A DNA stretch of 46,608 nucleotides from Bacillota bacterium (GTDB taxonomy: Bacteria > Bacillota_I > Bacilli_A > RF39 > UBA660), in assembly GCA_022771715.1 (NCBI GenBank), contig JALELF010000017.1, positions 1 to 46,608 of the forward strand, written 5' to 3'. Positions 566 through 13,141 of this stretch are shown one piece after another. How positions within the stretch are numbered: the stretch's first letter is position 1; every line of letters starts with the position of its first letter. A program made the translations under genes and the position numbers. The notes beneath the pieces are model-generated. The model did no database searches and had not been told where the DNA came from. It saw only the letters and a program-made list of their open reading frames with translations.

Positions 566-659
566 ACCATTAGCTATTAGCAAAAGTCAACCGATATCGG
601 CGCATATTAAAGCGATAATTTTGTTAAAATTATTTTAGATTGTAAAGGAGATGGAGATA

Positions 660-899
660 ATGCTATTCAAAGAAGCTATTAGTAAGCGTATTCTAGAACT
701 TTGTGACCAATATGATTATACTCCAAATAAATTAGCTGAAATGTCAGCAATTGCTCCTTCAACTTTGCGAGCACTTATATCTAATAAAGTTAACAATCCA
801 AGTTCTTACGTAATTTACAAAATATGTAAGACATTTAAAATAAGTTTGATCGACTTTTATAACTCTTCACTATTTGATGAAAAGCAAATTGACGATTAA
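660..899 (+). CDS. XRE-family helix-turn-helix transcriptional regulator
   Basis: Track ORF 651..899. The segment YTPNKLAEMSAIAPSTLRALISNKVNNPSSYVIYKICKTFKISLIDFY is a typical HTH_3/XRE pattern. AAGGAG at 645-650 is too close to the ATG at 651, so the ATG at 660 (MLFKEAIS...) is the better start. Confidence 0.8.
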   Translation: MLFKEAISKRILELCDQYDYTPNKLAEMSAIAPSTLRALISNKVNNPSSYVIYKICKTFKISLIDFYNSSLFDEKQIDD

Positions 900-944: not shown

Positions 945-1040
945 TATTACATCATGCTACAACAATTATTATATAATACTGTTTACTATAAATTCAAGGA
1001 CAAATTATAAATTTATGTATATTTTATGTAAAATAGTTAT

Positions 1041-1063
1041 AAAAAACGAGCTAATACTCGTTT
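1041..1063 (-). terminator. Rho-independent terminator at the end of the three-gene operon
   Basis: On the minus strand: AAACGAG-tattag-CTCGTTT followed by TTTTT. It overlaps the stop codon of the 98-aa ORF. Confidence 0.6.
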
Positions 1064-1358
1064 AATACATATCAATTAATTCTAAATTGCAAAAATCTTC
1101 ATTAACCAATTCACTTAAAACATTTAAATTAAACTTATCAAGTTTTTCTTTTAAAATTTCAGTTGGTACCAAAAATAAATCAGTTCTTTCAATTAATAAG
1201 TCATTTATTCTTTTAATACCAATTTCTTTAAAATAATTTAAATTATTTATAACCATTTCTTGATCACATATCAAATTTTCAATAAATGTTTCATCATTAT
1301 TTTTAATTACTTGAGCTATTGTTTCCTTAGTTATTCCAAAAGGTAATAGAAATTCCAT
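1062..1358 (-). CDS. Hypothetical small helical protein (98 aa), third gene of the coupled operon. The repeat pattern is mTERF-like.
   Basis: Track ORF. Its start overlaps the upstream stop (TAATG at 1356-1360). The segment LNYFKEIGIKRINDLLIERTDLFLVPTEILKEKL resembles a helical-repeat unit. I recognised no enzymatic motif. Confidence 0.65.
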   Translation of the reverse strand: MEFLLPFGITKETIAQVIKNNDETFIENLICDQEMVINNLNYFKEIGIKRINDLLIERTDLFLVPTEILKEKLDKFNLNVLSELVNEDFCNLELIDMY

Positions 1359-2998
1359 TATTTAAGCTCCTTCCCATAATTAAATGTATCAATAATTTGA
1401 CGAATTTTATTTATTTCTTCTTCAGTTATAATTGAATCATAAGTCATTATATAAAGTAATATATCTTGATCAATATTTATGCCATTTTTCAAAATAGTTT
1501 CTGCTAATCTTAAAACTTTAAGTCTAGAAATAAGTCTTCCATCAAAATCATATACATAATTATTCTTTTTATATTTTTCTAGTTGTGCTAAGACTTTATT
1601 CTGGAATACAATTTCAGATAAAGTATTGTTCTTACTTTCTGTTAAAATACTATCAATATATGGTCTTTTACTAATATCAAATGTCTTACATACATTTTTA
1701 GCTTCTTTTAAATTATGAATGTTTATAAAATCGCTGCCAACACCATATACGTCTTTTCTTAGGAATGACGAATTTTCGGTATGGTGATAATATGGTATAT
1801 GATTTGTTTGACAATAATAAATTCTATAGAAGCATAAATTATCAGGTGACAAAGTTAGCTTTGAATGATATCTTTCTATATATTCATACATACCAAGTTC
1901 TATAAATTTATCACATACTCCCATTAAATCAGGAGCTGTCATCCAACTATGAGTAGATAAGCCAATGTCATCTTTTTTTCTTAATCCATATAATTCAAAA
2001 GCTTTAATATTATCTTTAATTCTAGTTGGTGACATTCTGAATAATGTTTGAGCATTTTTTAATGCTTCTTTTACATCCACTTTTTTCCTTTTTAGAATAT
2101 CTACAATTTCAAGGAAATTTTCATATCCACTAGCAACGATAAGTTTTTTATAATCAGTACTAATAACTCTACTAGTCCTTTTAGGAACAAATACATTCTT
2201 TAAAGTTTCTAAAAGTCTTATAGGAAAACCTTCCTCCATAGCTATCTTTTCAATATTAGTTAACACATCAGCATTTGAATATACCAAGATTATTGTAAAC
2301 AAATCACTTTGTTCTCTTACAAAATTAAAAGAACAACTTCTTAATTTTTCAAGTGTTTGCTTTATATTATCATAGTTACCTTCATTTAATATTACTTTAA
2401 TATTATTTTCTTTTATTTGATTAATATCATAAGAATATTTACTTAAAAGTTGTGATAATTCTTCTTCACTTAATTTTACTTCTTTCTTTATTTCAATTTT
2501 TGGTGTTTCTTTATTCTTATCATTATACTTTAGTAAACTCATAATAATTTCGTTTCTTGTTTCATAGGGAACATCTTTATCTGATAAAATTTTAGTGATT
2601 AAATCTATTTCTGTTATTAATTCTTCATTATCTATTTTAGTTAATATTTTACTATAAGGATTTTTATATTTTTTAATTCTATCAGTTTCTTTTTGCTTTT
2701 TTATATCAGCAAGTTCAACAAAATCTGATAAAAATCTTTTTTGCTCTGCTTCTAAATCAAAATGAATTCCTTTTTTTTCAGCATACATTATTTTTTGAAT
2801 AAAAAGTAAATTTCTTAAAACAGCAGTTACATCATCTTTTTCGTAAATGAATTTAATTAAGTGTTCATCTAATTCTATTTCTGTTATATTACCTATATTA
2901 TGTCTTAAAGCTGAAACTTTTTCTATTTTATCCATTTCTTCTGGTTCTGGTAGACTATTTAAATAATCTTCAATTAAATTTTTTAATAAATCTATCAT
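1358..2998 (-). CDS. Hypothetical helical-repeat protein (546 aa), second gene of the coupled operon
   Basis: Long ORF in AT-rich DNA. ATGA overlap with the upstream gene at 2995-2998. Repeat-like units include NIKAFELYGLRKKD and CDKFIELGMYEYIERYHSKLTLSPDNL. I could not assign a family. Confidence 0.7.
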   Translation of the reverse strand: MIDLLKNLIEDYLNSLPEPEEMDKIEKVSALRHNIGNITEIELDEHLIKFIYEKDDVTAVLRNLLFIQKIMYAEKKGIHFDLEAEQKRFLSDFVELADIKKQKETDRIKKYKNPYSKILTKIDNEELITEIDLITKILSDKDVPYETRNEIIMSLLKYNDKNKETPKIEIKKEVKLSEEELSQLLSKYSYDINQIKENNIKVILNEGNYDNIKQTLEKLRSCSFNFVREQSDLFTIILVYSNADVLTNIEKIAMEEGFPIRLLETLKNVFVPKRTSRVISTDYKKLIVASGYENFLEIVDILKRKKVDVKEALKNAQTLFRMSPTRIKDNIKAFELYGLRKKDDIGLSTHSWMTAPDLMGVCDKFIELGMYEYIERYHSKLTLSPDNLCFYRIYYCQTNHIPYYHHTENSSFLRKDVYGVGSDFINIHNLKEAKNVCKTFDISKRPYIDSILTESKNNTLSEIVFQNKVLAQLEKYKKNNYVYDFDGRLISRLKVLRLAETILKNGINIDQDILLYIMTYDSIITEEEINKIRQIIDTFNYGKELK

Positions 2999-4557
2999 TT
3001 TTCAACACCGTCCATACTAATATTTTTATTTTTTTCATCTATAAGACTATAAATTTCTTCTCTAAAATCCTTATTATAACCTAATATTTCTCTTCTTCTA
3101 TTTGGATCTTTACTTAACGAAATTAAATTTCCAATAAGTTCTTTATTATTTTCATAGATGTTTTTAGCTTGATCACCATAATTTGCTTGTCTTGATGAGA
3201 CATGCATTACTAAAATCATATCGTTTGCTAAAGGCGTATAAACCACTCTAGATCCGCCTAGACCACCGCTTCCACCTTTTTTCTTAGCATATGCATGAAT
3301 GCCATTAATATATGATGGTGAAACGTTTCTAAAGTTTCCTTTTCTTAATTCACTTAAGGCTGAAATTATTTGATGACGAAACACTTTTTCTTTTAAACCA
3401 TTTGCTTTAAATTCTTTTTCTACATTATTTAAAAATATTAATTCTTTGTAAGAATCATTATCTAAATTTTTACCTTCTAAAGCTAAAATATTATCTCTGT
3501 ATTCTTTAAAGTATTCCTTTAAAACTTCGATATTCATTTGAAGTTCTTCTACAACGCCATCATCGTAAGTATAGTTTAAGGTTTTTAAAGCTTCTTCTAT
3601 TTCTTTTATGGTTTTATACATGTTTTTCAATAATACTTTTTTTGCAAATTCTATAGGTATATCTTTTATACCACATTGCTTATACAAGTTATCATAACCA
3701 TGTATTCCATTATCTCTTATTTCAGTTTTTCTTATGTCTTCTATATTTTCATCAATTATTTCTTTGACTTCATAATATATTTCCAATTGATTAGGCGTGA
3801 ATATTTTAGAAAAATCTACTTTACTTAATGTTCCTTCAAGTCCTATTTGAAATTCGCCTAAATCTTCATGTTTTAATTCTTCTGGTTCATTTTGTACTAT
3901 AGGTTCAGGTTTTGCAATTGGTTCAGACTTTATAATTTCTTTAGGAAGCTCTTCTTTGTAATCTACTTCCAAATCTTTAAATAATATTAAGTTACTTTTT
4001 AACAAGCCAGTTAGTATTGTATATTTTCCTTCTTCTGAAAAACCTATAGTTTCAAGTATTTCTTCTAATAAATCAAAATTATTAAAATATTTAATAAAAC
4101 CATTTTTATCCATAGAAGCTAAAAGTTCTTGAAGTAAATCTCTTCTTTCTTCTAAGGCTAGTTTATCTACAGATTTAGAATCTCTTATCAAAGTTAAAAA
4201 GTCATATATTTCTCTTAACTCACTCATTACACCTCTATATTGAGGTTGATTTGTTAAGTCTAGTCCAGCACATTCTTCAAATAAAAATCTTGCTTTAGAT
4301 ATAGTACTTTTCATTTCTTTTTTCTTGTAGTCATCAAAACTAGAGAATAAATTAAAGTCTATATTAATCAAGTCTGCTTCATCACTACAATCTTCAAGTA
4401 CTTTAGATACAATTATTTTTTTGGCTTCACTTTCTTGTGCTATTTTGATTTCTTTTTCGACTTTTTCTTTTTCTAATTCTATAAGTGACATTAGTTTTTC
4501 AAACTGACTCATAAAAACCCTACTTTCTATCTTTATATATTGTATCATTAGTTCCAT
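2995..4557 (-). CDS. Hypothetical protein (520 aa) with an N-terminal coiled-coil/helical region and a C-terminal RelE/ParE-like module. First gene of the coupled operon.
   Basis: Track ORF, with an alternative start at 4512 (MSQFEK...). The C-terminal segment LIFLNNVEKEFKANGLKEKVFRHQIISALSELRKGNFRN...GGSRVVYTPLANDMILVMHVSSRQ follows the RelE/ParE toxin pattern (R-v-v-Y ... i-l-v ... R). Confidence 0.7.
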   Translation of the reverse strand: MELMIQYIKIESRVFMSQFEKLMSLIELEKEKVEKEIKIAQESEAKKIIVSKVLEDCSDEADLINIDFNLFSSFDDYKKKEMKSTISKARFLFEECAGLDLTNQPQYRGVMSELREIYDFLTLIRDSKSVDKLALEERRDLLQELLASMDKNGFIKYFNNFDLLEEILETIGFSEEGKYTILTGLLKSNLILFKDLEVDYKEELPKEIIKSEPIAKPEPIVQNEPEELKHEDLGEFQIGLEGTLSKVDFSKIFTPNQLEIYYEVKEIIDENIEDIRKTEIRDNGIHGYDNLYKQCGIKDIPIEFAKKVLLKNMYKTIKEIEEALKTLNYTYDDGVVEELQMNIEVLKEYFKEYRDNILALEGKNLDNDSYKELIFLNNVEKEFKANGLKEKVFRHQIISALSELRKGNFRNVSPSYINGIHAYAKKKGGSGGLGGSRVVYTPLANDMILVMHVSSRQANYGDQAKNIYENNKELIGNLISLSKDPNRRREILGYNKDFREEIYSLIDEKNKNISMDGVEK

Positions 4558-4650
4558 CTTTTTTCAAGAGATATTTATTCATATTCATTGATTAAAATCA
4601 ACTACACATATTCTTAAAAAATCTATAATTCATAGCTAAATTTGTAAACT

Positions 4651-4677
4651 AAAAAGATACAGTTTTAAAACTGTATC
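4651..4677 (-). terminator. Rho-independent terminator of the 659-aa Big_2 gene
   Basis: On the minus strand: GATACAGTT-ttaa-AACTGTATC followed by TTTTT. Confidence 0.65.
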
Positions 4678-4684
4678 CATATAA

Positions 4685-6664
4685 TTAAATTTTAGGTCCA
4701 ACTAACATAAACCAAGAACTTGAACCACTACATGAAACTATTTCACTTAAACTAACCCATGTATTACGACCTGGTCTATTTTTAGCAGGGTCATATAACC
4801 ACACTTCATTATTTTCATTAATAGCTAATATTGCCATAATATGACCTGTTTTAGTATAACAGCCTGCTCCTACTCTTATTAAAACTGGATTACCTTCCTT
4901 TAAGTGTTCAATCATCTTCATTCTATCTGAAGCATTTTTGGTTTTATAAGTTTCACTAGTTTTTAAACCAAAATAAGTGAAAACTTTTCTAGCTGCTGTA
5001 TCTCCAGAACAATATCTGCTACACAATTTTTGACCATAAACTATCTCATTAGTAAGTCGTAAAGGATCATAAACATCGCCATTAGCATCTGTTACAAACA
5101 TTGATAAAATGGTAGCCCATGACGTTACTGAACAGCCTGATGTCGCTATTGGGCCACAATTTGCTGTAGAGCAGAAACTTCCTCCATAACTACCTTGCTT
5201 AAAACAAGTATATGGTGTTAAACAAAGATTATTATTCTTATCAGTATACTGTTCATGAGCAACTACAGTAACATTAACTTTAGCAACTAGTCCATTTTTT
5301 GTTATTGCTGAAATTGTCGTAGTACCACTTTTTATACCAGTAATTATTCCACTTGATGATACTGTCGCAATAGCAGGTGAACCACTTACCCATTCGACTT
5401 CTTGACTAGCTGTCATTGGTAAAACTAAAGCTGTTACTTGTTTAGTCTCTTTATCTTTTAACTTTACTGAACTTATACTTAATACTAATTCTGTAGGCTT
5501 AGGAGTTGAAGAAGAAGTACTATCTTCAATAACTTCAATATTTACAAAAGCTTTTTTATCATTAGTTGAAGTTGCTGTTATTACAGCTTTGCCTTTAGAA
5601 ATTGCTTTAATTTCTCCATTATTATTAACTGTTACTACACTAGTATTTGAACTACTCCAAATAAGATTTTTATTAGTAGCATTATTAGGCATAATTGTCG
5701 CGATTAATTTATCAGTTTCACCTTTCTTTAATTTTAAATTATCTTTATTTAACTTTACACTATATACATCAACTAAAGTATTTTTAGCTATTACTGTAAC
5801 TTCAATACTAGCGCTTTTTCCATTTACTGAAGCAGTAATTGTAGCACTTCCAGCAGCAACTGCTTCTATTAAGCCTGAATTAGAAACTCTAACAATACTT
5901 GAATTAGTACTACTATAAGTTACTTTGCCAATATTAGCGTTTGCTGGAATAAATGATATTCTTGTTTGATAAGTATCTCCTTTTTCTAACGATAAAGAAT
6001 TAGGACTAAATAAAATACTAGAAAGACTTATGGTTGGGCTTTCAACATTTACTTCAATACTAGCACTTTTACCATTTAAAGAGTACGCTGTTAGTGTAGT
6101 AGTACCACTAGTTCTTGCCATTACTAAGCCATCATCAGTTACAGTAGCTACTCTAGTATCATTTGTTTCCCAAATCACTTTGGGATTTGTAGCATTTTCT
6201 GGCAGTACTTTTGTTGTTATTGTATATGTTTTTCCAGATTTTAAATTAATTTGATTATCTAATATTTTTATTTCTTCTACTTCTATATAAGGGATTTCTT
6301 CATCTACATTTACTATTTCTGATGTTACTTTTATTTCTGCTTTTGAATTATCTAAAGTAGCACTTACTATACTTTCTCCTTCTTTTAAGGCTTTTATAAT
6401 TCCTTTATCATCTACTGAAACAATATCAGGATTAGTTGATGAAAACAAAATATTTTCTTTATTTTGACTTGTGCATTCTATTTCTAATTCATATTCTTCA
6501 CCAACTATTAATGAAACATACTCATCTACGAAAGAAATAGTTACCTCTTCTACTGGATTATCTACTTCTTTTTCTTTTTTAGGAATTAAGATAATAATTA
6601 AAACTACTGCTATTACTATGAAAATACTAGCTATAATAATATATTTTCTATTTTCTTTTATCAC
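4685..6664 (-). CDS. Membrane-anchored surface protein with multiple Big_2 (bacterial Ig-like) repeats and a C-terminal papain-like cysteine peptidase (C39-like)
   Basis: N-terminal TM helix (YIIIASIFIVIAVVLIIILI). Repeated units of the form xSSNxxVxxVxxxGxIxAxxxGxxxITA. The C-terminus has ANCGPIATSGCSVTSWATIL (Cys nucleophile region) and GHIMAILAINENNEVWLYDP (His/Asp). Confidence 0.75.
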   Translation of the reverse strand: MIKENRKYIIIASIFIVIAVVLIIILIPKKEKEVDNPVEEVTISFVDEYVSLIVGEEYELEIECTSQNKENILFSSTNPDIVSVDDKGIIKALKEGESIVSATLDNSKAEIKVTSEIVNVDEEIPYIEVEEIKILDNQINLKSGKTYTITTKVLPENATNPKVIWETNDTRVATVTDDGLVMARTSGTTTLTAYSLNGKSASIEVNVESPTISLSSILFSPNSLSLEKGDTYQTRISFIPANANIGKVTYSSTNSSIVRVSNSGLIEAVAAGSATITASVNGKSASIEVTVIAKNTLVDVYSVKLNKDNLKLKKGETDKLIATIMPNNATNKNLIWSSSNTSVVTVNNNGEIKAISKGKAVITATSTNDKKAFVNIEVIEDSTSSSTPKPTELVLSISSVKLKDKETKQVTALVLPMTASQEVEWVSGSPAIATVSSSGIITGIKSGTTTISAITKNGLVAKVNVTVVAHEQYTDKNNNLCLTPYTCFKQGSYGGSFCSTANCGPIATSGCSVTSWATILSMFVTDANGDVYDPLRLTNEIVYGQKLCSRYCSGDTAARKVFTYFGLKTSETYKTKNASDRMKMIEHLKEGNPVLIRVGAGCYTKTGHIMAILAINENNEVWLYDPAKNRPGRNTWVSLSEIVSCSGSSSWFMLVGPKI

Positions 6665-6685: not shown

Positions 6686-6711
6686 AAACAGTTAGCAATT
6701 ACCAACTGTTT
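6686..6711 (-). terminator. Weak hairpin between the two Big_2 genes. Possible terminator or attenuator.
   Basis: 8-bp stem AAACAGTT / AACTGTTT with a 10-nt loop. The U-tract is only short, and the hairpin overlaps the stop codon of the upstream gene. Confidence 0.3.
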
Positions 6712-8743
6712 AATCTCCATATGTTTCTTCCATTGAAAAAAGTATATTAAATTTTACATGTGTATTTCTTGGATATGTTGTCATTGTTAAAGAAGCACTA
6801 CTACCAGCTGAATGAATTATTGTAAGTGTTCCATCTTTATTTACACTATATACCATAGCATAATGAGTTGCGCCAGCAGTTCTTACAAGCACGTCACCTG
6901 GCTTAGCATAATACACTATATCGTTTACTGCTAATGTTCCTTCACTACTATATCTTATTGGTTTACCTGATTTATAATTTATTTTAACTAATTTTCCAGT
7001 TCCTTGATATATTGCCCATGATAAGAATGAGTAACAATCAAGACCTCCTGTTGGTCTACTACCACCATTAGATGTACTCCAAACTTTGTTCCAACCTTTA
7101 ATAACATAATCCATAGTATTACCTAGATATCTAACTCTATAGTATGGATTATATGTTAGGAAGTATGCCGCCGCTAATGTTCTTGCTCTATTGCTACTTA
7201 TTCCATTTGCTTTAAGGGCAGCTTCTTCCATATATGAATTTAAGTGATCATTAATCTGTCTTATTTCACTATCTGACATTGTTTTATTAAGGCCATATTC
7301 TTTAGCTCTTGTTTCTTCTGTTATATCTGGATATCCAACTGTTACTTCTATTTTAGCAACTAATCCATTTTTTGTTATTGCTGATACTGTCGCTTTACCT
7401 GTTTTATTTGCTTTAACTAATCCTGTATTTGATACTGTAACACAGTCAGAACTTGCGACCCAAGTAACTTCTTGGGGTGCTGATAAAGGTAAAATTGTTG
7501 TTTTTAGTTGTTTTGTTTCTTTTGGTTTTAATTTTAATGATGTTAAATTTATATATATTTCCTTAGGGCTATTATCTTTTAAAAGAGCTTTAACTTCTAC
7601 TTTTAGCGTTGCTTTTTTATTGTTTGATGATGTTACAGTTATAGTAGCTGTTCCTTCTTTTAAAGCTTTAATTTTACCGTTATTAACAGATACTACATTA
7701 TTGTTAGAAGAACTCCATGATAGATTTTTATTACTAGCGTTACTTGGATTAATAGTAGCAGTTACTGTTTGTTCTTCAAGAACGTTTAAAGTAAGCGAAG
7801 TAACACTTAAACTAATATAATTTACTGGTATAGAAGGTGTACTTTCGTCTTTTTTCTTAACATTAACTGTCATTGTGGTGCTTTTACCATTTGACGTAAT
7901 TGTTATTATAGACGTTCCTGATTTTAAAGCTGTTATAATTCCTTCTCTTGAAATATAGGCTACTTCACTATTTGAACTATAGTATTTTGTTGTCTTATCT
8001 GAAGCATTACTAGGAATATATTCTATATTTAGCTTATATGATTCAGATATATCCATATCTATTGATTTAGGGTATACATTTATTTCTGACAAATCAATGT
8101 TTCTATTTTTAACATTTACTATAATTTTATCTGATTCTTTACCATTTACAAATGCGGTTAATGTAGCACTTCCAACCATTCTAGCAAAAACATTACCACT
8201 ATCTGTTACGGTCGCTACTCTTGCATCAGTCGTTTCCCAATAGATACTTTTTTCAGTATAATTTTCTGGATATATGTCATAGTTAATTTGATATGATTTT
8301 CCTGAATATAAATTTAAAGTACTATCTTTAATTTTTAAACTTTCAGCTTCTATTTTTTTGTCAATTATAGCGACATCTTTATTTTCAACAACTACTTCTA
8401 CATCAGCTGTTAAACCTTTTTCAGTTACGACAGTAACTGTAGATGTTCCTTCTTTCAAGGCTTTTATTTTATTGCCTATTAAAGTTATTACTGATTCATC
8501 ACTTACTATATACTCTATTTTTTCTTCATAATTTATGGGATTTATATCTAAAGTTAATTCATATTCTTCATCTTTTTTTAATGTAATCACATTATCTACA
8601 AAGGAGATAGATTTTATTTCAAAAGAATCTTTATCTACTTTGGGTTCTATAGGTTTTGTTTCTTTTTTAGGCTTAATTGCTATAAAAATAGTGATTAAAC
8701 TTAAAACTATTAAAGAAATAATTATTATATTCTTTTTTGACAT
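6710..8743 (-). CDS. Membrane-anchored surface protein with multiple Big_2 repeats and a C-terminal NlpC/P60-type peptidoglycan endopeptidase
   Basis: N-terminal TM helix (IIIISLIVLSLITIFIAI). The Big_2 repeats are paralogous to those of the neighbouring gene. The C-terminus has GGLDCYSFLSWAIY (Cys) and THYAMVYSV...IIHSAG (His), the NlpC/P60 pattern. Confidence 0.75.
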   Translation of the reverse strand: MSKKNIIIISLIVLSLITIFIAIKPKKETKPIEPKVDKDSFEIKSISFVDNVITLKKDEEYELTLDINPINYEEKIEYIVSDESVITLIGNKIKALKEGTSTVTVVTEKGLTADVEVVVENKDVAIIDKKIEAESLKIKDSTLNLYSGKSYQINYDIYPENYTEKSIYWETTDARVATVTDSGNVFARMVGSATLTAFVNGKESDKIIVNVKNRNIDLSEINVYPKSIDMDISESYKLNIEYIPSNASDKTTKYYSSNSEVAYISREGIITALKSGTSIITITSNGKSTTMTVNVKKKDESTPSIPVNYISLSVTSLTLNVLEEQTVTATINPSNASNKNLSWSSSNNNVVSVNNGKIKALKEGTATITVTSSNNKKATLKVEVKALLKDNSPKEIYINLTSLKLKPKETKQLKTTILPLSAPQEVTWVASSDCVTVSNTGLVKANKTGKATVSAITKNGLVAKIEVTVGYPDITEETRAKEYGLNKTMSDSEIRQINDHLNSYMEEAALKANGISSNRARTLAAAYFLTYNPYYRVRYLGNTMDYVIKGWNKVWSTSNGGSRPTGGLDCYSFLSWAIYQGTGKLVKINYKSGKPIRYSSEGTLAVNDIVYYAKPGDVLVRTAGATHYAMVYSVNKDGTLTIIHSAGSSASLTMTTYPRNTHVKFNILFSMEETYGD

Positions 8744-8857: not shown

Positions 8858-11800
8858 CTATTTACCAATCCATTTCATAATTTTTTGACTACAGTTATTA
8901 TCAGAAACATTAGCATCATTAATTGTATTTTTATAAGCATAAGGTACATTAACAAATTCATATGATAAATCTTCATTAATAATCATATAAGTAGCTTTAC
9001 CTTTATCATTACTTTTAGAGTTTCCGATTCCTATAGCTTTTAAAGTAATAATTTTATCATTGATATTAGCAAAATGTTTATGTCCTTGAATAATTAAATC
9101 ATACTTAGAAATATCATACAATAAATTACCATTATTATAGTCATATAAATAATGACATAATAAAACTTTTTTACCTCCTATATTTAACTCAATGTAATCA
9201 TCATAATTAGAAATTATTTCAATTTGGTCTTGACTTAAATTGTCTAAAGTCCATTTAGTATTAGCTGCTTCTTCTGGATAAGCACCTGTTTCTATTAAAT
9301 GTTTTTGATAAGCATCAACACCATTTATTAAATATAACTCATGGTTACCTTTAACGCTTTTTACTCCATAGTGATTTAATAAATCAATTACTTCACTTGG
9401 ATTAGAGCCTGTCCCAATATTATCTCCTAATGAATAAATTTTTGTTATACCTTTTTTTCTAATATCCTCAAGAGCAGTTAAAGTTGGTTCAAATAATCCA
9501 TGAGCATCTGTTAAAACAGCAATCTTATCTTTGTTTTTGACACTAATTACTCTATTTCTGAATTCAATTAGATATTCTTTACTTACAGCTGGTTTTAACT
9601 CAACTTCTTCTCTCACATTAATAGGTGAAGGAATTGCTTTGTTAACCGGCTGTGTTAAAATAATTTTCAAATTATATTTTAATGCTATTTTAATTTCTTC
9701 GTCTGATGGTTCTCTTCCTGGACAAATTATATATTTAGGTTTCATTCCTTCACGTAAAGATAGTATTTCAGAATTACCATGAGCATCACTTATTTCAAGT
9801 ACTCCTCTTTGACTTCTTATAAGTGGAGCTACTTCTACAGAATTTTTTACAATGCCACCATTAGTTCCCATGTTATCATTAGAACTACAAATAAAATTAT
9901 CATAAGGCATTTCATCAAATCCAAAAATAGTGTTACAAGCATCATAATAATATGCTTGCATTCTATGACTTATCGCTGATAAAGAAATGAAGTTTTGTTT
10001 ACCACTTGCCACACCATTTACTAAATTATCAATATTTTCTGAACTACTTATTACATGAGCAAGTAGTGTATACTGTTTATCTCTAAAATCATATACATCA
10101 ACACCATATTTTTTAGATTCATCTTCTAATTTTACTTTGTTTTCTAAAACGTTGTATCCTATTTTAGATAAATTATAATCCATTTCAATTGCATATAATT
10201 CACGCATTAATTCCTCATAATTTTTGAAATTAAAATCAGTTAAAATAGAATTTAAGTTAATGATAGTGTCATCAAGCATTTGAGCTAAAACATTTATATC
10301 TTCACAGTTAACTATATCTTCTATCAATTCTGTATAATTAATAACTTCATCTATTTTCTTTAATACTTCTGGATTATGCAAATTGTAAAATTTTAATTGC
10401 AACAATTCACAAACGCCACCATAATTAGATAGCATTCCTAAAGCACCGGTAGTATCGCAATTAAAAGATATTTGTAATATTAGGTCTTTATAATCTTCTA
10501 GTTTAGTACAATTTTTCATTCTAATTAAATAATCATCTTTTATTGTACTAATTATATTATCACAATCTTCATAACTATTTATTCCGGAAATTGTTTTGTT
10601 TTGTTTAAACAATAATTTAATTTTATCAAAATTTATGAATTCTAATTCTTCTAAAGCAAGTGACTTACATAAATCTTTATATCTTAAATAATTCTTAACA
10701 AAATCTAAAAAATCTTTATAAGAATACTTACTATTCTTATCATATATATAAGAAAATAATATATTTTTTATATTTAAAAATTCTTCTATGTCATTTTCAT
10801 ATATTTTAACAATATCTGGAACATAATTATAATTCAAATTTAATGAATATTGCCAAAATCTAGGTATATCAATATTGTTAAGTTTTAAAAAAGCTTGTAT
10901 TTTTTCAAAATTTTTAACTAGTTCAAAATGGTTATTAAGATAACATTTAACAAGTTCTAATACCATAGCTTGGTTGTCTTTATTGGTATATGTATTAACA
11001 ATTAATTTTAAAGCAAAATTTTCGCCAACACTTCTACGATTAACAAAGTTAGGATCATTTACTAATTTTGAAAGTCTATCTTTATCTATTTTAGGTAAAA
11101 CTAAATTTAATATTTCTTCCGGAGTTCCCTTTTGAAGATATTCAGCTGGATCTATTTTCTTATTATCTAAATTATCTTTAACAATTCTAAAAATATCATT
11201 TCTTTTCATCTTGAATAATATAGATTTTTGCTTGTCTGATAAGCCTCTTTCAATAAATAATTTATGTAAAAACCCATCATCTAATTCAATATTTTCAAGG
11301 AAAACAATAAATAAATTATCAAAATTTTTTCTTAAACCCTTTAAGAAAAGCAAACACTCACTATAAGTCATTTTTTTGATTTCTTTAGCTTTATTTTTTA
11401 CTGAATTATTTAATAATTTTTGAGTTTTTTTATTACTATAAATACATCCATTTAAAATAACACCATTTTTTAAAGTTAAAATAACATCATCATAGCTTAT
11501 TATATCTAGTGCAACATCATTAATCACATCAGATGGATTATAAAATACTTCTCTTACAAAATCAATAGGACTTTTTCTATAGTCTTTTTCTAAATTGTAA
11601 ATTATTTCTTTAGGAAATCTTTTATAAAGTGTTTCAGTTTCAATATAACTTAATTCTTGTAAAAGTAACCATAAATTATTAAAGTCTAAATTTTCTATTA
11701 AATACTCTCTAAAGTCAGTTGATGAGCATTTTATAAATAGGTTTTTTGCTCTATTTAAATCACTAACTAATAATTTTTGATATTCCCTAATAATTGTATT

Positions 11801-13141
11801 TTTATACAATTTATATAAAGAATTTTTTAAATCTTTTGAAAAAATAGTACTTTCTAAGATATAAATAATTTCTTCATTTGCTAAGTCTTTTAATAATTCT
11901 TCTTGTAAAATTAAAGGATAACTATATTCTCTTAAATACTTATTTATATATTGTTGTCTATTACCTTTTTCTTCATTAATTATTCTTAATACTTCACTTT
12001 TATACTTTTTGTAAATAAATTCTATTAATGTTTCTTTTTTACTTTCTAAAATTTCTTTTATAAATGCTTCATCTATATTAACTCTTTCAAAAACTCTATT
12101 AAATATCTTATCTGTAATAGCGCTTGATAAAAAATCCGATAAACTAAGAGGATTATTGGATATTTGTTCAACTAATATTTCTACAATTTCATCTTCTCTA
12201 ATCTGAAATAATATTTTTCTAAAAGCGTAAAACCAAGTATATTTTCCGGTTTTTAATAAATTTTCAATTTGTTCGAAACTTAGTTTTTTTATCACGTTTT
12301 CTATTATTTCTTCTGAACTGTTATTTAAAATCTCTAAATATGAATCATTTTCTATTAAATAATCTTCCCACTTGTCAATTTTATCTTTATACTCAGAAAA
12401 AATAAACTTTCTTAAATTAATGTTGCCTTCTAAATAAATAAAAGAAATAATATCATTATTAAGTGGATACTTTTCAAATAATATTTTACATGTAGAATCA
12501 GGTAAATCTAATTTTAACAATTCTTTTAATTCACTAACATTGTTTGTGTTTTTTAAAACATAGTTAGATATATCTTCACTTCTATATTTTTTTATACAAT
12601 TAATAAGAGTATAATTAAAACTATCAGCCATTTCTTTTATTAAAGTTTCAATATCTAATCTACTAATAATATATCCTAGCATCTCTTCTGGTACTGATAA
12701 AGGCTTTATATATTGCTTATATGTATTACTTTTAATAGAAATATCTAATAATGAATTTATGTCGTTTTTACGTATATCATATAAATTAGATACAAATGTA
12801 ACATTTTTTAATATTAATTCATTAATAACATTTGTACTAACGTTTGAAATTATTAAATCTCTTAAATCAAAATTAAACATTAACATTTTTCTCAAAAATT
12901 CAATATCAGAATCATCTTTTATAGTAAACGTTTTAAAAAAGCTTGCTACTTTCTCTTCAAGATAAAGTAATATAAGGTCTAGTAAATATTTTTTACTTGG
13001 TAACTTAAAAACTTCTGTCATATCTTCATAATTATATAAAATATTTTCTATTCCTAATTTATTAAATATTTTTAGCTTAAAAAATCCCGGAATAAATTGA
13101 TTTCTTAAACGTTTTATTTCTTTTTCACTAATATTATACAT
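8858..13141 (-). CDS. Giant (1427 aa) cytoplasmic helical-repeat protein with a C-terminal calcineurin-like metallophosphoesterase domain (YfcE/MJ0936-like)
   Basis: Uninterrupted 4.3-kb ORF, with GGGGGAAGGG upstream of the ATG. The C-terminal approx 230 aa carry the MPE motifs VLTDAHG, SLGDNIGTG, KGNHE, LLCH and QGHKH. I see no signal peptide or TM helix. The N-terminal approx 1000 aa are Leu/Ile/Lys/Glu-rich helical sequence with no motif I recognise. Confidence 0.75.
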   Translation of the reverse strand: MYNISEKEIKRLRNQFIPGFFKLKIFNKLGIENILYNYEDMTEVFKLPSKKYLLDLILLYLEEKVASFFKTFTIKDDSDIEFLRKMLMFNFDLRDLIISNVSTNVINELILKNVTFVSNLYDIRKNDINSLLDISIKSNTYKQYIKPLSVPEEMLGYIISRLDIETLIKEMADSFNYTLINCIKKYRSEDISNYVLKNTNNVSELKELLKLDLPDSTCKILFEKYPLNNDIISFIYLEGNINLRKFIFSEYKDKIDKWEDYLIENDSYLEILNNSSEEIIENVIKKLSFEQIENLLKTGKYTWFYAFRKILFQIREDEIVEILVEQISNNPLSLSDFLSSAITDKIFNRVFERVNIDEAFIKEILESKKETLIEFIYKKYKSEVLRIINEEKGNRQQYINKYLREYSYPLILQEELLKDLANEEIIYILESTIFSKDLKNSLYKLYKNTIIREYQKLLVSDLNRAKNLFIKCSSTDFREYLIENLDFNNLWLLLQELSYIETETLYKRFPKEIIYNLEKDYRKSPIDFVREVFYNPSDVINDVALDIISYDDVILTLKNGVILNGCIYSNKKTQKLLNNSVKNKAKEIKKMTYSECLLFLKGLRKNFDNLFIVFLENIELDDGFLHKLFIERGLSDKQKSILFKMKRNDIFRIVKDNLDNKKIDPAEYLQKGTPEEILNLVLPKIDKDRLSKLVNDPNFVNRRSVGENFALKLIVNTYTNKDNQAMVLELVKCYLNNHFELVKNFEKIQAFLKLNNIDIPRFWQYSLNLNYNYVPDIVKIYENDIEEFLNIKNILFSYIYDKNSKYSYKDFLDFVKNYLRYKDLCKSLALEELEFINFDKIKLLFKQNKTISGINSYEDCDNIISTIKDDYLIRMKNCTKLEDYKDLILQISFNCDTTGALGMLSNYGGVCELLQLKFYNLHNPEVLKKIDEVINYTELIEDIVNCEDINVLAQMLDDTIINLNSILTDFNFKNYEELMRELYAIEMDYNLSKIGYNVLENKVKLEDESKKYGVDVYDFRDKQYTLLAHVISSSENIDNLVNGVASGKQNFISLSAISHRMQAYYYDACNTIFGFDEMPYDNFICSSNDNMGTNGGIVKNSVEVAPLIRSQRGVLEISDAHGNSEILSLREGMKPKYIICPGREPSDEEIKIALKYNLKIILTQPVNKAIPSPINVREEVELKPAVSKEYLIEFRNRVISVKNKDKIAVLTDAHGLFEPTLTALEDIRKKGITKIYSLGDNIGTGSNPSEVIDLLNHYGVKSVKGNHELYLINGVDAYQKHLIETGAYPEEAANTKWTLDNLSQDQIEIISNYDDYIELNIGGKKVLLCHYLYDYNNGNLLYDISKYDLIIQGHKHFANINDKIITLKAIGIGNSKSNDKGKATYMIINEDLSYEFVNVPYAYKNTINDANVSDNNCSQKIMKWIGK

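Follow-up and report, generated by a model that had tools for sequence, protein, structure and literature searches.

The question raised by three overlapping genes at 1062-4557 on the minus strand of contig JALELF010000017.1 (assembly GCA_022771715.1, a Bacillota bacterium of the RF39 lineage) is whether they represent an accessory, defence-like system or a fixed component of the genome in which they reside. The genes, termed here A, B and C (locus tags MR227_01190/01195/01200), are each annotated as 'hypothetical protein', and a preliminary description of the 46,608 nucleotides analysed (hereafter the window) favoured the first of these possibilities, proposing an operon of helical-repeat proteins directed at nucleic acid. 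We show here that a vertically inherited operon of uncultured small-genome gut Bacilli, D-A-B-C, is represented locally by the trio, which lacks the first gene, D. The gene set matches no described system, and no known kind can be named for it. The three genes of the window are:

2995..4512, minus strand: gene A, 505 amino acids (aa), or 520 aa for the longest open reading frame (ORF), which extends to 4557; isoelectric point (pI) 5.0; no transmembrane segment
1358..2998, minus strand: gene B, 546 aa; member of a large unnamed family
1062..1358, minus strand: gene C, 98 aa; pI 4.3, charge -10; a free-standing copy of the helical unit pair of B

Word-based searches found few relatives, the contigs of which keep the gene set, its order and its overlaps, and a profile locus search with a shallow alignment returned one genome locus only. 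An exhaustive profile search placed B in a family with 492 representative clusters at E<=1e-3, or 304 when the limit is set at E<=1e-10 (counted at the 50% identity level), nearly all of 550-620 aa and matched end to end. When metagenomes were searched with the back-translated B motif Y-[ND]-F-[ND]-G-x-x-I-S-R-x-K-V-L-R, 54 loci were recovered, for the most part of human gut origin, and viral contigs yielded no match. A C-family gene lies directly downstream of 40 of the 42 distinct complete B genes, mostly with a 4-nucleotide overlap, and of the two remaining genes one is at a contig end and the other has an adjacent ORF that was unrecognised as C. For 35 of these 42 genes an A-type ORF lies upstream (a contig end or an assembly frameshift accounts for most of the others), and a D-type ORF precedes A in ~27. 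The cassette of loci L001 and L003 comprises proteins of 138+616+584+98 aa, the B protein being 25% identical to that of the window; that of L002 encodes 493+555+98 aa without D, which is also missing from the window and from L006. Further contexts of B members contain D of 140-196 aa, A of 540-790 aa, B of 567-746 aa and C of 96-100 aa. The stop/start gene overlap, and with it the coupling, is conserved across cassettes. At one locus (L053, VOFJ01000514.1) all genes, the cassette included, are in 50-200-aa pieces; pseudogenisation of the cassette was rejected here because the whole contig is fragmented, which indicates assembly indel error. The carriers go under the labels 'Bacilli bacterium', 'Tenericutes/Mycoplasmatota bacterium' or 'Clostridium sp. 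CAG:433' and, judged from their longest contigs, have genomes of ~1.1-1.4 Mb; we take them to be RF39/RFN20-type lineages. Single variants of the 98-aa C protein are present on 500 to >1000 contigs.

Within the species of the window, the one that was sampled in depth, the trio occupies an identical site in 18 of 18 contexts (8 retrieved via C and 10 via the neighbouring Big_2/C39 gene), while a nearby gene for a 1427-aa protein and the downstream genes vary across the same contexts. Pairwise ratios of nonsynonymous to synonymous polymorphism (pN/pS) among nine strains are 0.042 for A, 0.051 for B and 0.068 for C, whereas the two surface-protein genes next to the trio have values of 0.11 and 0.17, and these selection data exclude spurious ORFs as an explanation of the trio. 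Two related lineages have in common a synteny in which the cassette is found with YitT; between them YitT is 62-64% identical, and D, A, B and C display identities of 38-41%, 35-38%, 43-46% and 59%, respectively. On the basis of these identities and the within-species pN/pS, the cassette proteins diverge fast in the long term and are tightly constrained in the short term. Searches of phage and plasmid collections with B (tblastn) returned nothing, as did two scans of viral contigs for the B motif, and a phage or plasmid origin was rejected for want of such copies. No integrase or transposase lies near the cassette in nine annotated contexts, and no component A, B or C matches PADLOC-DB v2 at E<=1. 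Taken together, these observations are more readily explained by a gene set fixed in the lineage and inherited vertically than by a defence island, and the accessory, defence-like setting proposed in the preliminary description is not supported, given the presence of the trio in all 18 strain contexts retrieved, pN/pS values below those of the neighbours and the lack of phage or plasmid copies and of any PADLOC match. A conserved core locus with fixed synteny, which that description had itself set against its defence reading, is observed within the species but not across lineages, where the flanks of the cassette vary (rplQ/CtpB, UvrA/Lgt, PBP, YitT, HSP20/SDR, PssA/Psd or Big_2/XRE).

The architecture of the locus is that of a self-contained unit, and here the preliminary description is borne out. 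The positions of the ORFs confirm three coupled minus-strand genes, in which the stop codon of A overlaps the start codon of B (ATGA at 2998-2995) and the stop codon of B overlaps the start codon of C (TAATG at 1360-1356); the AAGGAG Shine-Dalgarno sequence of C sits within the 3' end of B. The example peptides quoted in the preliminary description are likewise present in the proteins. The view that the operon lies between two terminators is supported by a hairpin on either side, in a region where a scan found 4 terminator-like sites and 0.6 were expected. The signals around the genes are:

4539..4567, minus strand: promoter-like site TTGAAA-17-TGxTACAAT, upstream of the ATG at 4512; a consensus match only
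4655-4678, minus strand: terminator-type hairpin of the upstream Big_2/C39 gene (dG -13, z -4.4)
~1038..1063, minus strand: intrinsic-terminator-like hairpin with U-run at the end of the operon (dG -11.5 kcal/mol, z -3.2), which overlaps the stop codon of C

Because the promoter-like site, read from 4567 to 4539, falls within the 520-aa ORF of A, and because all but one of the database gene calls for A are of 505 aa and start at the ATG at 4512, this ATG is most likely the start of A. The preliminary description had also noted the XRE gene beside the operon. This gene (651-899, plus strand; gene callers use a 79-aa start) encodes a small regulator of the HTH_26 type, converges on the trio, is separately terminated at 912-938 and was not found beside the cassette in the annotated contexts of other lineages. 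It was thus rejected as a partner regulator, and its presence next to the operon is incidental.

What the cassette proteins consist of is less readily answered by comparison with known families. None of A, B and C matches a family at threshold in Pfam, PADLOC, PHROGs or NCBIfam, a Pfam scan of 73 B members yielded noise only, and nothing was found when D and other A proteins were compared with NCBIfam and Pfam. The earlier view of a non-metabolic, undescribed set that lacks any housekeeping family is upheld; the A, B, C and D families are without a described relative, the sole tie to known biology being one domain of A. From its N-terminus, A runs through a helical domain, an acidic linker and a helical stretch to a probable RelE/ParE-type module, and ends in a helical tail. 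B begins with an A-like N-terminal domain, which is followed by at least two helical units of ~35 aa, a D-x-F-I-E block and a C-terminal domain characterized by Y-x-F-x-G-x-x-I-S-R-x-K-V-L-R. The parts are listed below, where pLDDT is the confidence score (predicted local distance difference test) of the AlphaFold2 models:

3973..4512, minus strand: helical N-terminal ~180 aa of A, a domain homologous to that at the N-terminus of B; pLDDT 70-87
3820..3972, minus strand: acidic Pro/Glu-rich linker of A, predicted to be disordered; residues 180-231, pLDDT <50, pI 4.4
3151..3450, minus strand: RelE/ParE-superfamily-like module of A (residues ~355-454 of 505); basic, pI 9.7; R422 is the equivalent of RelE R61
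2504..2998, minus strand: N-terminal helical domain of B, common to A; pLDDT 64-89
2288..2497, minus strand: C-like helical unit 1 of B (residues ~168-237); hhalign of C with the B family, E 5.3e-4, probability 31%
1973..2143, minus strand: C-like helical unit 2 of B (residues 286-342); hhalign E 3.3e-5, probability 72%; within the basic stretch 271-400
1862..1912, minus strand: conserved block D363-x-F-I-E367 ... Y373 ... S379 of B; conservation in sets of 121 and 73 sequences
1508..1552, minus strand: signature motif Y483-x-F-x-G-x-x-I-S491-R-x-K494-V-L-R497 in the C-terminal domain of B; Y483, S491 and K494 invariant

The relationship between A and B resides in their N-termini: the two families align with an hhalign probability of 91.7% (E 7.7e-7), and the hidden Markov model (HMM) of the B family matches A at residues 16-204 (520-aa numbering) with a whole-protein E of 2.5e-8, albeit with high compositional bias. 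C is related to B through a unit of ~35 aa with the core G-x-x-E/N-x-x-x-x-N-I-x-x-L-x-x-x-G-I, and C proteins are retrieved with the B-family HMM (hmmsearch) at E 1.2e-6 and low bias. An hhalign comparison of C with A gave no match. Thus, of the helical unit that had been described in all three proteins, the part concerning B and C stands, while what A has in common with B is its N-terminal ~180 residues. D, which matches none of the other three (hhalign), was rejected as a relative of A, B or C. Across 121 B sequences E367, Y483, S491 and K494 are invariant and G290, Y337, D363, Y373, V495 and R497 are at least 90% conserved, a level that S379, G487 and I490 attain in a subset of 73 sequences; the 746-aa B protein of L004 (2543-4783) and L005 contains the C-terminal Y-x-F-x-G-x-x-[IV]-S-R domain twice. 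The families are acidic (pI ~4.9 for A, median 4.5 for C and 5.5 for B), and basic patches occur solely at the C-terminal module of A (pI 9.7) and at residues 271-400 of B (pI 9.2). Hydrophobic or transmembrane segments and signal peptides are absent from the cassette proteins, and secretion or a membrane location was rejected because no hydrophobic segment is present.

The domain of A that does resemble a known protein lies near its C-terminus, where all lineages display the same pattern of a beta-strand (LIFL), helices, a K-rich...G-x-R-[IVL]-x-Y stretch and a hydrophobic strand. Residues ~355-454 probably adopt a RelE/ParE-type fold, as the preliminary description had suggested. A profile built from seven module sequences, the window included, returned E. 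coli RelE as its four best matches in the PDB (4v7k, 4fxe, 2kc8 and 4v7j; E 0.0022-0.0061), the match spanning RelE residues 14-89 of 95, with YoeB next at E 0.12. The module consensus matches only ParE_toxin (E 0.0032, 18.4 bits, below the cut-off of 23), and sub-threshold Pfam matches were obtained for 5 of 16-18 A relatives, to Gp49 (2, E 6e-4), ParE_toxin (2, E 0.008) and MqsR (1). In the HMM alignment the equivalent of RelE R61 is invariant in 18 of 19 relatives, those aligned at the column; the equivalents of K52, K54 and R81 are kept in the window and L002 only, and the position of Y87 is variable or ambiguous.

How might such proteins act together? Our preferred reading, which we put forward tentatively and with considerable doubt, is that the D-less cassette of the window encodes a co-translated cytoplasmic complex in which the basic RelE-type module of A is the effector and the acidic parts act as a gate. 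A, B and C would be made in fixed proportion and assemble into one complex, in which A and B may pair through their common N-terminal domains and C may dock as an extra B-type unit. The effector would address either mRNA at the ribosome, as RelE does, or another nucleic-acid machine in the manner of ParE, and the acidic parts of B, C and, where present, D could hold or gate it. The locus would then be a domesticated or 'giant' toxin-type regulatory complex and not a mobile defence island. This reading is built on the conserved, coupled gene set, the paralogy of A with B and of C with the B units, the probable RelE-type module, the confinement of basic patches to that module and one stretch of B, and the fixed and constrained locus, whereas assembly, target and regulation are inferred. 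A bolder proposal, which we consider less probable still, is that D-A-B-C constitutes a previously unseen cytoplasmic machine of reduced-genome gut Bacilli of the RF39/RFN20 type. Paralogous helical modules would here be arranged around a domesticated RelE-fold domain to carry out a core task, directed at RNA, the ribosome or DNA, that is performed differently or not at all elsewhere in bacteria, and the D-x-F-I-E and Y...I-S-R-x-K-V-L-R elements of B would represent a new binding or catalytic domain.

It should be emphasized, however, that several observations count against an effector complex built on a RelE-type module in a core locus. The A protein of the window, compared alone with the RelE/ParE models of Pfam, gives no match, all Pfam scores of the module are below cut-off, and the PDB was searched with no match using the insertion-bearing A subgroup, as was also the case for a broad 18-sequence profile. 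Conservation of the RelE catalytic residues R81 and Y87 does not extend across the family, and the module may therefore be non-catalytic. The AlphaFold2 models, made from shallow inputs (a 4-sequence alignment for B, 2 sequences for A), are poor, with pLDDT of 47.7 for B and 57.8 for A and values <50 in the regions of functional interest; Foldseek comparison of these models with the PDB returned only helical bundles at E>=1, which is uninformative. Profile searches of the PDB with B, with C, with broad C-terminal alignments of A and with a profile of C plus the B units likewise gave nothing meaningful. The neighbourhood of the cassette supplies no functional hint, and the 'core' status of the locus derives from contexts of a single deeply sampled species.

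The alternative that survives best is a true toxin-antitoxin or abortive-infection module, in which A would be a large RelE-type toxin that B, C or D neutralise or for which they act as sensors, release occurring on phage attack or stress. We regard this as unlikely, although the RelE-type module of A, the tight translational coupling and the small acidic partner C speak for it, as do a tandem duplication of the cassette in L005, the GmrSD-like gene near one locus and the faster divergence of the cassette proteins (35-59% identity, against 62-64% for a neighbouring membrane protein). The module of A can be aligned to nearly the full length of E. coli RelE and to the ParE_toxin model, and, in common with the RelE/ParE/HigB(Gp49) toxins, the A family keeps the R61 equivalent, to which the window lineage adds K52, K54 and R81. 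In contrast with these toxins, which are free-standing proteins of ~85-110 aa, the module is located near the C-terminal end of a helical protein of 490-790 aa and is followed by a helical tail, and the catalytic positions are not conserved across the family. Type II toxin-antitoxin loci differ further from the cassette: A has two or three partners, all novel and one of them ~550-750 aa long; B, C and D show no match to any known antitoxin family and have no recognisable antitoxin fold (RelB, ParD, Phd or HigA); and the cassette locus is fixed and strongly constrained, while toxin-antitoxin loci are usually patchy. Three-component toxin-antitoxin systems are known, examples being PaaR-PaaA-ParE and toxin-antitoxin-chaperone systems. 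These resemble the cassette in that several co-transcribed, translationally coupled genes surround a RelE/ParE-type protein; the cassette operon, however, includes neither a helix-turn-helix regulator nor a SecB-type chaperone, its components are 5-7 times larger and none is homologous to known antitoxins. The single site in all 18 strain contexts, the very low pN/pS, the lack of a PADLOC match and the lack of copies in phages, plasmids and viral contigs also argue against a defence role. The tandem arrangement, in which two cassettes occupy one contig and the first is without D, extends over L005 3822-12540. The GmrSD-like gene belongs to L062, where the genes for an HTH_3 protein and for a 778-aa GmrSD_N-like protein (resembling type IV restriction) at 214-2977 lie 3-5 kb upstream of the cassette; it is the only defence-type neighbour seen.

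It could also be argued that the operon specifies a lineage-specific structural or scaffolding complex, concerned with cell organisation, division or the envelope and with no nucleic-acid target, the RelE- and mTERF-like signals being relics or chance. Such a role, to which we give slightly less credence than to a toxin-antitoxin module, is consistent with all-helical acidic proteins that have long coiled or helical N-terminal domains, with resemblances in PDB and Foldseek searches to generic helical bundles only, and with the core-like behaviour of the locus. It accounts poorly for the invariant polar residues of B (E367, Y483, S491 and K494) and the invariant arginine of the A module, which suggest specific binding or catalytic sites, and for a RelE match that covers nearly the whole RelE chain; the lack of membrane segments also speaks against it.

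A regulator of transcription or replication, in which B and C are sequence-specific DNA-binding repeat proteins, is the third alternative, and an improbable one. It derives from the likeness to mTERF solenoids (PF02536) noted in the preliminary description, of which a weak form remains. Proteins of the mTERF family are built of tandem ~30-aa three-helix motifs that form a superhelix. Of all Pfam families, mTERF is matched by the most C members (7 of 29, best E 0.005), and it also heads the matches of the C consensus (E 0.0027, 17.1 bits); the C protein of the window itself gives E 0.017 and 14.5 bits. All of these are sub-threshold, the Pfam cut-off being 23.1. The ~35-aa helical units, present in C and at least twice in B (in a region modelled at pLDDT <50), recall pTERF, prokaryotic mTERF-like proteins described in 2024, which include pTERF1 (MBQ3414883.1), are built of 3-11 tandem 35-aa repeats, likewise come from metagenome-assembled genomes of gut Bacillota and bind DNA (PMC11417379). 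Against this, B matches mTERF at chance level (1 of 73 members, a single sub-threshold match at E 0.0047) and its central consensus not at all, no profile matched an mTERF structure in the PDB, and neither C nor B has the conserved Pro8 or the leucine-heptad signature of the mTERF family. C, moreover, consists of one unit pair only and is strongly acidic, and its pI of 4.3 therefore makes it a poor fit to a nucleic-acid-binding solenoid; B is mildly acidic. The mTERF likeness of C and B is thus best treated as a lead, not a result. A polymorphic-toxin (LXG-like) locus, with a helical targeting domain and C-terminal toxin, small helpers such as D upstream and immunity proteins downstream, is very improbable: the gene order, in which a small helical D comes before a large helical protein with a toxin-fold domain near its C-terminus, and sub-threshold Imm6 and Imm3 matches in a few C proteins, recall such loci, but the toxin-like module is one family in all relatives and not variable, which already largely refutes the idea, a conserved helical tail follows the module, B is large and conserved with a domain common to A, and there is no LXG or secretion-domain match, signal peptide or transmembrane segment.

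Conserved hypothetical operons are not rare in uncultured lineages. This one is clearly functional, however, and its carriers rank with the most prevalent of the bacteria that remain uncultured from the guts of humans and animals; an operon of 3.5-5.5 kb that is kept under strong purifying selection in small genomes, and that databases leave unnamed, represents a real gap in knowledge. If the RelE-type module of the proposed effector complex is active, a ribosome- or mRNA-directed toxin fold would have been built permanently into a large multi-protein assembly, a new use of a fold found elsewhere in toxin-antitoxin pairs that are small and mobile; should B and C turn out to be mTERF-like, the operon would add to the signs, reported only very recently, that an organellar protein family has relatives in prokaryotes. 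The signature motif of B provides a simple metagenome marker for carrier lineages.

The surroundings of the operon are those of an ordinary chromosome. The window, which has a G+C content of ~25%, includes genes for PolC, LigA, MurB, MurG, NrdD, RelA/SpoT, SufC/B/S, ABC transporters and a two-component system, and over its full length (1-46608) it has neither tRNA genes nor, at the gathering threshold, any Rfam family. Upstream of the trio, 4685-6664 and 6710-8743 (minus strand) encode tandem paralogous membrane-anchored surface proteins, each with five Big_2 domains and a C-terminal domain of the Peptidase_C39_2 or CHAP type. The 1427-aa protein is encoded at 8858-13141 (minus strand), its sole recognised domain being a C-terminal calcineurin-like phosphoesterase; the gene varies among strains, being absent in L066 and L072, and the version in L078 encodes 1431 aa without a Pfam match. 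The cassette of L002 has a Post_transc_reg (PF13797) gene on its upstream side (80-358) and an 84-aa Cys/His-rich ORF on its downstream side (3965-4219). Arginine-codon reassignments have been reported in related low-GC uncultured Bacilli (PMC8629427). In 22 genes of the window (11,890 codons) CGG and CGC together occur 0 times, CGA 8 times and AGG 18 times, and TGA serves as the stop codon in 5 of the 22.

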